A stretch of 64,000 nucleotides of DNA, taken from the NCBI GenBank assembly GCA_041652815.1, contig JBAZGN010000004.1:15890-79889 (forward strand), written 5' to 3'. Source of the DNA: Candidatus Omnitrophota bacterium. Its GTDB lineage: Bacteria; Omnitrophota; Gorgyraeia; Duberdicusellales; 4484-171. The notes beneath the pieces are model-generated. The model saw nothing but the letters and a program-made list of their open reading frames with translations, was not told the DNA's origin and ran no database searches. This document shows positions 9,055-9,500 of this stretch, piece after piece (the stretch's first letter is position 1; every line of letters starts with the position of its first letter). The position numbers and the translations under genes were made by a program.

Positions 9055-9384
9055 TTGATGAAAGTTAAAAAGATAATCTTATGGATTTTTGTTCTGGTAA
9101 TTGCAAATTTTTCTTTAAATGCTTTTAGTTTTGTTTTTGCAGCTGCTGAAGCGTCCAGTGTTAATCCGGGTGTCGCGCAATGGGGTTTTCTGGCTGCGGC
9201 AATTGCAACAGGTTTAAGCGCTATTGCAGCAGGAATAGCTGTGGCTTATGTTGGAGCAGCTGCAGTTGGCGCAATGAGCGAGAAACCGGAAATAGCGGGC
9301 CGCGCTCTTATTTATGTCGGCCTTGCAGAAGGTATTGCGATTTACGGCTTGATTATAGCGATTATGATTTTAGGCAAGATATAA
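9055..9384 (+). CDS. atpK: V/A-type ATP synthase subunit K (c, proteolipid)
   Basis: 109-aa hydrophobic Gly/Ala-rich proteolipid with conserved Glu in the last helix ('[11 protein letters not shown]'); AGGAGG RBS. Confidence 0.8.
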
Positions 9385-9500
9385 ACGCGAATGTACGCTA
9401 ATCTAACGCGAATGGTCGCGAATAGATTTATTAGCGTGAATTAGCGTTTATACCTTAATCATCTATGAAGGTATGAATTTGCGATAATTCGCGTAAACAA
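9381..9500. repeat. Family-C element (CGCGAAT/ATTCGCG direct-repeat array), copy 1 (inverted relative to the others)
   Basis: CGCGAAT at 10/21-bp phasing; contains 'GCGTTTATACCTTAAT', the reverse complement of 'ATTAAGGTATAAACGC' found in copies 3 and 4; between atpK and atpF. Confidence 0.65.

Follow-up and report, generated by a model that had tools for sequence, protein, structure and literature searches.

Phased heptamer palindromes in an Omnitrophota genome are probable gene-less derivatives of a GxxExxY nuclease cassette

Four short elements, here named C1 to C4 (family C), lie between genes in a 64-kb stretch of Candidatus Omnitrophota DNA (the window, meaning the whole stretch that was analysed), two of them inside the atp operon and the others upstream of pta and hisF. 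All four are rich in the heptamer CGCGAAT or its complement ATTCGCG, and their placement raises the question of whether they are regulatory sites that tie these genes together, promoters or mobile repeats. The original prediction, made from the sequence alone, favoured arrays of response-regulator sites that might define an energy-metabolism regulon, and offered a promoter-bearing mobile repeat as a fallback.

When the sequence was re-read, the four elements were located where they had been placed, the longer blocks quoted as common to them are present, and the neighbouring genes are confirmed (ATP-synt_C/ATP-synt_F for C1, vATP-synt_E/ATP-synt_ab for C2, PTA_PTB for C3 and His_biosynth for C4). 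ATTCGCG occurs 23 times on the two strands of the 64-kb window, against 11.8 ± 2.9 expected, a count that 0 of 100 shuffles reach. The elements hold 19 of these 23 ATTCGCG/CGCGAAT heptamers in a combined length of about 470 bp (0.7% of the window), and with the degenerate unit CGCNAAT/ATTNGCG they are the only clusters found there. Nearly all genes of the window are on the plus strand. At the gathering threshold, Rfam reports one tRNA for the window and no family for C1–C4. An ungapped palindrome finder and an exact 6-mer array detector under-detected the elements and were used as pointers only.

The original prediction described direct repeats at helical phasing. This holds within one arm, where heptamers are spaced 10, 11 and 10 nt apart, but across the whole element 4 + 4 units form an imperfect palindrome, a symmetry that had been overlooked. 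Aligned to its own reverse complement, each element consists of four CGCNAAT units, a short loop and four ATTNGCG units (table 1). The arm consensus is (A)ACGCNAAT-nnn-CGCNAAT-cTA-ACGCNAAT-nnn-CGCNAAT, and the second arm is the reverse complement, with ATTNGCG four times, ending in ...GCGTTTA; the loops measure 6–22 nt. At 106–131 bp, with inverted arms of 42 nt and no coding capacity, the elements have the form of miniature inverted-repeat elements (MITEs), which are small and non-coding with terminal inverted repeats. Their single-strand folds lie well below shuffled controls (z −3.5 to −7.2). Matches to a ‘terminator-like’ scan within the elements were rejected, as they are adjacent heptamers pairing with each other. 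In C1, C3 and C4, units 2 and 3 of one arm are separated by an extra mini-hairpin module of about 27 nt (..ACCTT...ATTAAGGTATA; the TTAAGGTATA module), and by the direction of this module C1 has the opposite orientation to C3 and C4. The 16-nt module junction ATTAAGGTATAAACGC is present only in C1 (minus strand), C3 (plus) and C4 (plus), and in 0 of 27 other loci compared. Since the module is confined to these three copies, they form a gene-less subfamily that has multiplied inside this genome.

Table 1. Family-C elements and other palindromic repeats of the window.
Feature	Position	Strand	Description
C1	9382..9497	.	between atpK and atpF; its first 3 nt are the atpK stop TAA (9382-9384)
C1 arm A	9386..9423	+	CGCGAAT 9386-9392, CGCTAAT 9396-9402, CGCGAAT 9407-9413, CGCGAAT 9417-9423
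C1 arm A'	9430..9493	+	ATTAGCG 9430-9436, ATTAGCG 9440-9446, module, ATTTGCG 9477-9483, ATTCGCG 9487-9493
C1 inserted module	about 9449-9474	+	TATACCTTAATCATCTATGAAGGTAT
C2	10485..10591	.	inside the 148-bp atpE-atpA spacer (10461-10608)
C2 arm A	10485-10526		CGCGAAC, CGCGAAT, CGCTAAT, CGCGAAT; loop 10527-10548
C2 arm A'	10549-10591		ATTCGCG, ATTCGCG, ATTTGCG, ATTAGCG
C3	17953..18083	.	pta 5'UTR, downstream of promoter TTGATT-16-TATAAT at 17909-17936
C3 first arm			CGCGAAT 17955, CGCTAAT 17966, module 17973-18000, CGCGAAT 18003 and 18013
C3 loop and second arm			loop 18020-18041; ATTCGCG 18042 and 18052, ATTTGCG 18063, ATTCGCG 18073
C4	41895..42007	.	between a divergent minus-strand gene (start at or before 41852) and hisF
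C4 first arm			CGCGAAC 41897, CGCGAAT 41907, module 41914-41940, CGCGAAT 41943, TGCGAAT 41953
C4 loop and second arm			loop 41960-41965; ATTCGCG 41966 and 41976, ATCCGCG 41987, ATTTGCG 41997
ACGAAT/ATTCGTG sister-family palindrome	2043..2116	.	5' region of SNF-transporter gene
CGCGGAT/ATCCGCG sister-family palindrome	45628..45722	.	upstream of rpsP; spacing 10, 12, 10
AATAACCAA/TTGGTTATT palindromic repeat, three copies	6800-6912, 16954-17091, 52643-52778		units of about 7-8 nt
GGTTGCG/ACGTAA types (GGTTGCG / CGTAA(A/G)ACG arrays)	17700-17860, 48621-48710, 50630-50769 (or 50638-50769), 57508-57653 (or 57508-57646)

The arms were compared across 11 elements. Pairing within elements involves 77.3% of cells, against 80.1% when arms are swapped between elements, and in a compensation test 499 of 500 shuffles pair at least as well as the real elements. 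Pairing is mostly absent at heptamer position 4 and in all of the spacers, CGC and AAT show no variation, and no compensatory changes that keep pairs within each copy were found among the 11. Because there is no within-element compensation, the arms are arrays of a conserved asymmetric motif and not a compensated helix, an arrangement that fits putative recognition by a protein along one face of the duplex. The sense-strand fold is more stable than the antisense fold in 18 of 26 elements (mean −2.6 kcal/mol, p = 0.03), with 73 G–U pairs against 48, a modest asymmetry with which the positive GC skew of the plus strand is confounded. A table of position conservation in half-arms was dropped as evidence, being circular in that its matches had been selected by the motif.

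Comparison with relatives bears directly on whether the elements are fixed parts of these loci. The window's own AtpE has 100% identity to a protein from a 'Candidatus Omnitrophica bacterium' MAG (metagenome-assembled genome). Three syntenic loci (L025, L026 and L027, with AtpE 78, 71 and 66% identical) were compared spacer by spacer. The atpE and atpA genes overlap as TAATG in all three relatives (...ATTATAATGGCAAAT...), and at this site the window carries a 148-bp insert with C2. Given the overlap in relatives, C2 is a clean 148-bp insertion, one that preserves both the atpE and the atpA reading frames and provides the presence/absence difference at an orthologous site by which MITEs are recognized. 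Its junction (...ATTATA/GATG...TCGAT/ATGG...) allows no unambiguous target-site duplication to be read, and none could be defined at the empty atpC–atpI site. Between atpK and atpF, C1 in the window is replaced by an ACGAAT-family palindrome in L025, a CACAGAT-family palindrome in L026 and 56 bp without arrays in L027. The spacer between the NTP-transferase and nitroreductase genes holds three different families in three genomes and is empty in a fourth. The promoter that precedes pta (TTGATT...TGGTATAAT) is conserved, and the 5′UTR behind it contains C3 in the window and unrelated hairpins in the relatives.

An operator array that defines an energy-metabolism regulon would be expected to be conserved at orthologous promoters and to keep a fixed distance from them. 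C2 is missing from all three relatives, and the positions of C1 and C3 are empty or otherwise occupied. The geometry is not fixed either: C3 lies downstream of the pta promoter, C4 lies upstream of the likely hisF promoter, and C1 and C2 are within the operon. The promoter-like hisF sequence, TTGATT(15 nt)TGGTATAAT at 42020–42046, begins 12 nt beyond the end of C4; it was read by eye, the scan having passed over it with its spacer of 15 nt. In that promoter scan none of the four elements contains a sigma-70-like hexamer pair, which argues against a promoter-bearing element, and C1 and C2 hold no promoter-like site that could act as an internal atp promoter. Judged from these sequence comparisons, the regulon and internal-promoter readings are not supported. 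The fallback idea of a mobile repeat proved right, as indicated by the insertion at atpE–atpA, the turnover of sites and the occurrence of the same arms on nuclease cassettes.

These cassettes were found by two routes. A 24-nt family-C pattern matched only two Omnitrophota metagenome-assembled genomes (MAGs) among the GTDB representative genomes, together with ten metagenome contigs. The loci include complete 4 + 4 palindromes (L003, L007, L010 and L012) and half-elements, and in L008 and L013 the arrays flank a gene, a ~125-aa ORF matching TIGR04256 ‘GxxExxY protein’ and PF13366 (PD-(D/E)XK) with E ~1e-35. A homology search yielded 394 relatives, many of them on contigs of 1–3 kb; the best 120 are 60–98% identical, and those with a name are Omnitrophota. 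Nine GxxExxY genes that were fetched by protein homology or met by chance in flanks (L014, L019, L020, two in L023, two in L024, L031 and L032; L008 and L013 are counted apart) all have the ORF exactly between inverted unit arrays. As a control, a flank-array score of at least 2 is reached by 2 of 61 ordinary window genes. Family-C arms are found in six of the nine (L014, L019, L020, L024a, L031, from a MAG labelled Elusimicrobia, and L032) as well as in the pattern-found L008, and the remaining arm types are CGCAGAT (L023a), GATTACAGCG (L023b) and ACGAAT (L024b). The genes of flanked cassettes match PF13366/TIGR04256 only. The cassettes are co-directional with the housekeeping genes between which they lie (rho–rpmE, uvrD–gatC, gspF–pilin, histidine kinase–response regulator), and the start and stop codons of the GxxExxY ORF are in or adjoining the arms. 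The L013 gene (3061–3561), from a GC-rich genome and 29% identical to the others, has swapped polarity, with ATTCGCG arrays 5′ and CGCGAAT arrays 3′ of the gene, an arrangement that simple inversion cannot yield. Outside Omnitrophota, a copy on a Treponema plasmid has inverted flanks of about 30 nt, a Persicobacter copy has same-strand AATCC-type repeats only, and a scan of viral contigs returned one half-array that has no partner arm.

Gene-less copies accompany resident cassettes. In L014, three gene-less family-C elements stand in tandem (1319–1637) with a 114-bp period and a zero-length loop, immediately before the cassette-bearing operon, and they have the same 43-nt right arm as that cassette. 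In L023, two gene-less CGCAGAT palindromes lie less than 2 kb from a cassette with CGCAGAT arms. The arms also encode the protein termini: among 120 proteins, ‘..NSR*’ and ‘..LALDSR*’ tails correspond to ATTCGCG arms, and ‘MVAD..’ together with ‘..SA*’ to CGC[AG]GAT arms. Arm types assigned from these termini are mixed in 0 of 78 proteins and track the core-protein tree, with 72 of 78 nearest neighbours in agreement (0 of 2000 permutations). Core-protein identity is 0.70 between arm families and 0.71–0.78 within them, a weak signal for specificity determined by the protein. A further marker, ‘..KT*’ tails for ACGTAA-family arms, proved wrong, as that cassette has family-C arms. Read from the ATG at 10461, C2 gives ...SRPFAFDLRELAF..., in the frame of GxxExxY C-terminal tails with the core removed, and from this shared frame C2 appears to be a cassette remnant. 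No GxxExxY homologue was found in the 64-kb window, where the small ORFs are all housekeeping genes. The same ends on a longer coding element are therefore seen in other genomes and not shown for the window's own, in which a cognate gene is assumed, not seen; a cassette locus of a different genome (P0056) is without the C1/C3/C4 module.

The function of the GxxExxY family is listed as unknown (PMC3424549). The protein keeps its PD...E.K residues intact and invariant, and its AF2 model (pLDDT 88) has Cas4 and lambda/RecE-type exonucleases as closest folds in a fold search; a PDB search with its sequence gave no match. In the literature that was searched on Omnitrophota repeats, GxxExxY, PDDEXK_3, heptameric repeats and IVS proteins, an association with such arrays is not described, and a remark in database family descriptions is possible.

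It is highly probable that C1–C4 are inserted, gene-less derivatives of the GxxExxY cassette and do not form a regulon. The fuller reading, that they are MITE/REPIN-like gene-less copies of the cassette whose heptamers serve as protein recognition sites, seems to us rather probable from sequence. The specific step in which the GxxExxY nuclease itself recognises the heptamers and moves the element is proposed more tentatively. The full cassette, in outline, would be an element of about 0.5 kb, widespread in Candidatus Omnitrophota, made up of a left arm of four CGCNAAT units (spacing 10, 11, 10 nt), the ~125-aa nuclease ORF and a right arm of four ATTNGCG units. Cassettes and their ORF-less derivatives would insert into the spacers of genes that run in the same direction, in many cases immediately behind the stop codon of the first gene, and would turn over fast between species. 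The phased heptamers would be putative recognition sites to which, by analogy with multi-site transposon ends, a sequence-specific protein binds along one face per arm; this protein is most likely the GxxExxY nuclease, which may cut or mobilise its own element in cis and gene-less copies in trans. Effects on atp, pta or his genes would be by-products, for example of an RNA hairpin in the transcript. As a generalization of comparable uncertainty, GxxExxY proteins (PF13366/TIGR04256) could act as sequence-specific nucleases in a so far unrecognised class of bacterial mobile cassettes of ~0.5 kb with inverted phased-heptamer ends. Gene-less hairpin derivatives of this class would fill Omnitrophota spacers, its specificity would drift in concert over eight sites (CGCGAAT, CGCGGAT, CGCAGAT, CACAGAT, CACGAAT), and ORF-bearing rRNA intervening sequences may be related to it.

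Several known systems resemble parts of this arrangement. REP/REPIN sequences with their RAYT genes, in Pseudomonas and E. coli, are short palindromic intergenic repeats with a partner gene flanked by inverted repeats. Like them, the Omnitrophota elements are non-autonomous repeats in many copies with a single-copy partner gene flanked by inverted repeats, and the families are lineage-specific and co-inherited with the gene. Unlike them, the partner here is a ~125-aa PD-(D/E)XK protein (GxxExxY, PF13366) and not an HUH/Y1 transposase, the arm is made of four phased heptamers where REP is a single hairpin of 20–25 nt, and the ORF lies inside the palindrome loop. ERIC, Correia/NEMIS, RPE and BOX elements are likewise imperfect palindromes of 100–150 bp, transcribed between genes or within operons, found in either orientation and with internal insertion variants. 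They share no sequence similarity with the present elements, whose arms are internally repetitive at helical phasing. A protein-coding full-length form is linked here; ERIC is not known to have one, and no cognate transposase is known for Correia. Multiple subterminal transposase-binding sites occur in Tn7 (TnsB sites), Mu (L1–3 and R1–3) and Ac/Ds (hexamers), where each end similarly carries several short asymmetric motifs in the same orientation and the ends are mutually inverted. Those transposons, in contrast, are kilobases long with DDE transposases, and in Tn7 the PD-(D/E)XK protein TnsA is an accessory cutter only. In behaviour the gene-less copies resemble REPIN, MITE or ERIC-type repeats, but their partner belongs to an uncharacterised PD-(D/E)XK family in place of a RAYT or DDE transposase, and their ends are arrays of phased motifs.

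Alternatively, the arms could be a mobile vehicle moved in trans by another factor, with the GxxExxY or PF05635 protein as a selfish or useful passenger in the loop. We judge this unlikely. It would account for a PF05635 four-helix-bundle gene in L024 with the same kind of flanks (inverted ATAAGTA/ACTTAT arrays of 7-nt units), for the abundance of gene-less copies in a window that has no GxxExxY gene, for protein divergence that hardly separates the arm families, and for the nesting of elements in each other's loops (L002 4440–4660; window 52595–52854). Against it stand the nuclease fold of GxxExxY with its intact catalytic residues and the joint inheritance of arm type and protein clade, and no transposase-like candidate was seen beside the elements in about 200 kb of Omnitrophota DNA, whose ORFs were scanned in part.

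A second alternative places the activity at the level of RNA. ORF-bearing 23S rRNA intervening sequences of Coxiella and Leptospira carry their ORF in the loop between terminal inverted repeats and are RNase III substrates (PMC4990558). The present cassettes would be their analogue in mRNA, with RNase III-type processing of the stem releasing or silencing the ORF and gene-less copies forming hairpins in the mRNA by which parts of the atp operon are stabilised or uncoupled. The two share a stem of terminal inverted repeats whose loop holds a small ORF, both count as selfish inserts, and the PF05635 ‘IVS protein’ family occurs in the L024 cassette. All cassettes are also co-oriented with their neighbours inside transcription units, the codon positions at the arms would suit such processing, and so would the greater stability and more numerous G–U pairs of the sense folds. 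This reading is nevertheless quite improbable. No copy is inserted in a 23S or 16S rRNA helix, all being in mRNA intergenic spacers between protein-coding genes, and the arms are poorly paired repeat arrays, unlike the Coxiella stem, a near-perfect helix of 28 bp (PMC4990558). The lack of within-element compensation speaks against a selected stem, as do the mismatched position 4 and spacers, which leave helices of 3–6 bp; the strand asymmetry is weakened by the skew noted above, and C4 sits ahead of a promoter in a divergent intergenic region, a position at which transcription of the sense strand would not be expected.

The last alternative takes the arrays as operators of an OmpR/NarL-type regulator with an energy-metabolism regulon, or as internal atp promoters; it is the least likely of all and very improbable. 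Although the heptamers are phased at 10–11 nt, their motif is conserved independently of pairing and C4 ends close to a promoter-like −35 element, the turnover between relatives and the inconsistent position relative to promoters stand against this, as do the same arms around a nuclease gene at unrelated loci (rho–rpmE, uvrD–gatC and gspF–pilin) and the analogous palindromes of unrelated units in about half of the long intergenic spacers of the window.

With the mobile reading preferred, the atp/pta/his regulon is removed as a false lead, and a very widespread, uncharacterised family of small nucleases would gain a testable function, the recognition and mobilisation of phased heptamer arrays. 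Such elements explain a large part of the long intergenic DNA that an uncultured phylum carries, and related pairs of protein and repeat would offer a natural series in which DNA-recognition specificity and target sites drift together. The repeats also break metagenome assemblies, and gene callers extend ORFs into the arms and so give artefactual N-termini. Among the database proteins P0001–P0120, many GxxExxY entries have such N-terminal extensions (MVAD.., MNTNPTLIVAN..) and variable C-terminal tails that are translated arms.

Palindromes of short tandem units with other sequences are common in the window, where they occupy about half of the 32 intergenic spacers of at least 85 bp. The CGCNNAT-type families have a common period of 10–11 nt, and some other families have units of 7–8 nt. 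From one heptamer family to another, the main changes are CpG-to-TpG/CpA transitions that affect one and the same position of each of the eight units (CGCGAAT and CACGAAT; CGCAGAT and CACAGAT), and an element of L025 (16913–17003) stands half-way, with a left arm that is mostly CGCAGAT, a right arm that is all ATCTGTG and G–U pairs on the sense strand only. The right arm of the ACGAAT-family palindrome near the start of the window closely matches the L025 element at atpK–atpF. Two copies of the AATAACCAA repeat lie at atpC–atpI and between the NTP-transferase and nitroreductase genes, spacers that are empty or otherwise occupied in relatives, and the third is nested inside an ACGTTA/ACGTAA array. 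Three copies of the GGTTGCG-type arrays have in common a GC-rich hairpin, CTGCCCGCC(GMAG)GCGGGC(R)AG.

Nested arrangements were also met elsewhere. In L002 (4440–4660), the loop of a GTCTAT/GTCGAT palindrome contains a nested CGAAGTCCGA palindrome, and a lone family-C right arm follows; this points to insertion into loops of elements already in place. A small GC-rich palindrome, CCTGCCTGCCGGCAGGCAGG(G), occurs in L019 (2912–2932), where it is inserted inside a family-C right arm, in L023 (500–525) and in the window (about 8915–8940), and could represent a mini-element of its own. The 3′ end of the tRNA at 25631–25705, AAATCCGGTTGGGGCTG, is repeated about 175 nt downstream (about 25870–25890), beyond a terminator hairpin, a pattern that resembles an att-site scar left by an integrated element since lost. 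Finally, the atpK ribosome-binding site is directly preceded in three species by a conserved long-range stem, AATTCGC(R)CTATTATTTTT(C)...(variable GC-rich hairpin)...GAAAAATAATGTG(Y)TCATT (window 3700–3775 and 8960–8985; L025 9180–9262; L026 9180–9256), with a second window copy upstream of a beta-lactamase-like gene. The stem has no Rfam match at the gathering threshold, and the sequence upstream of atpK could be a leader RNA or another repeat family.
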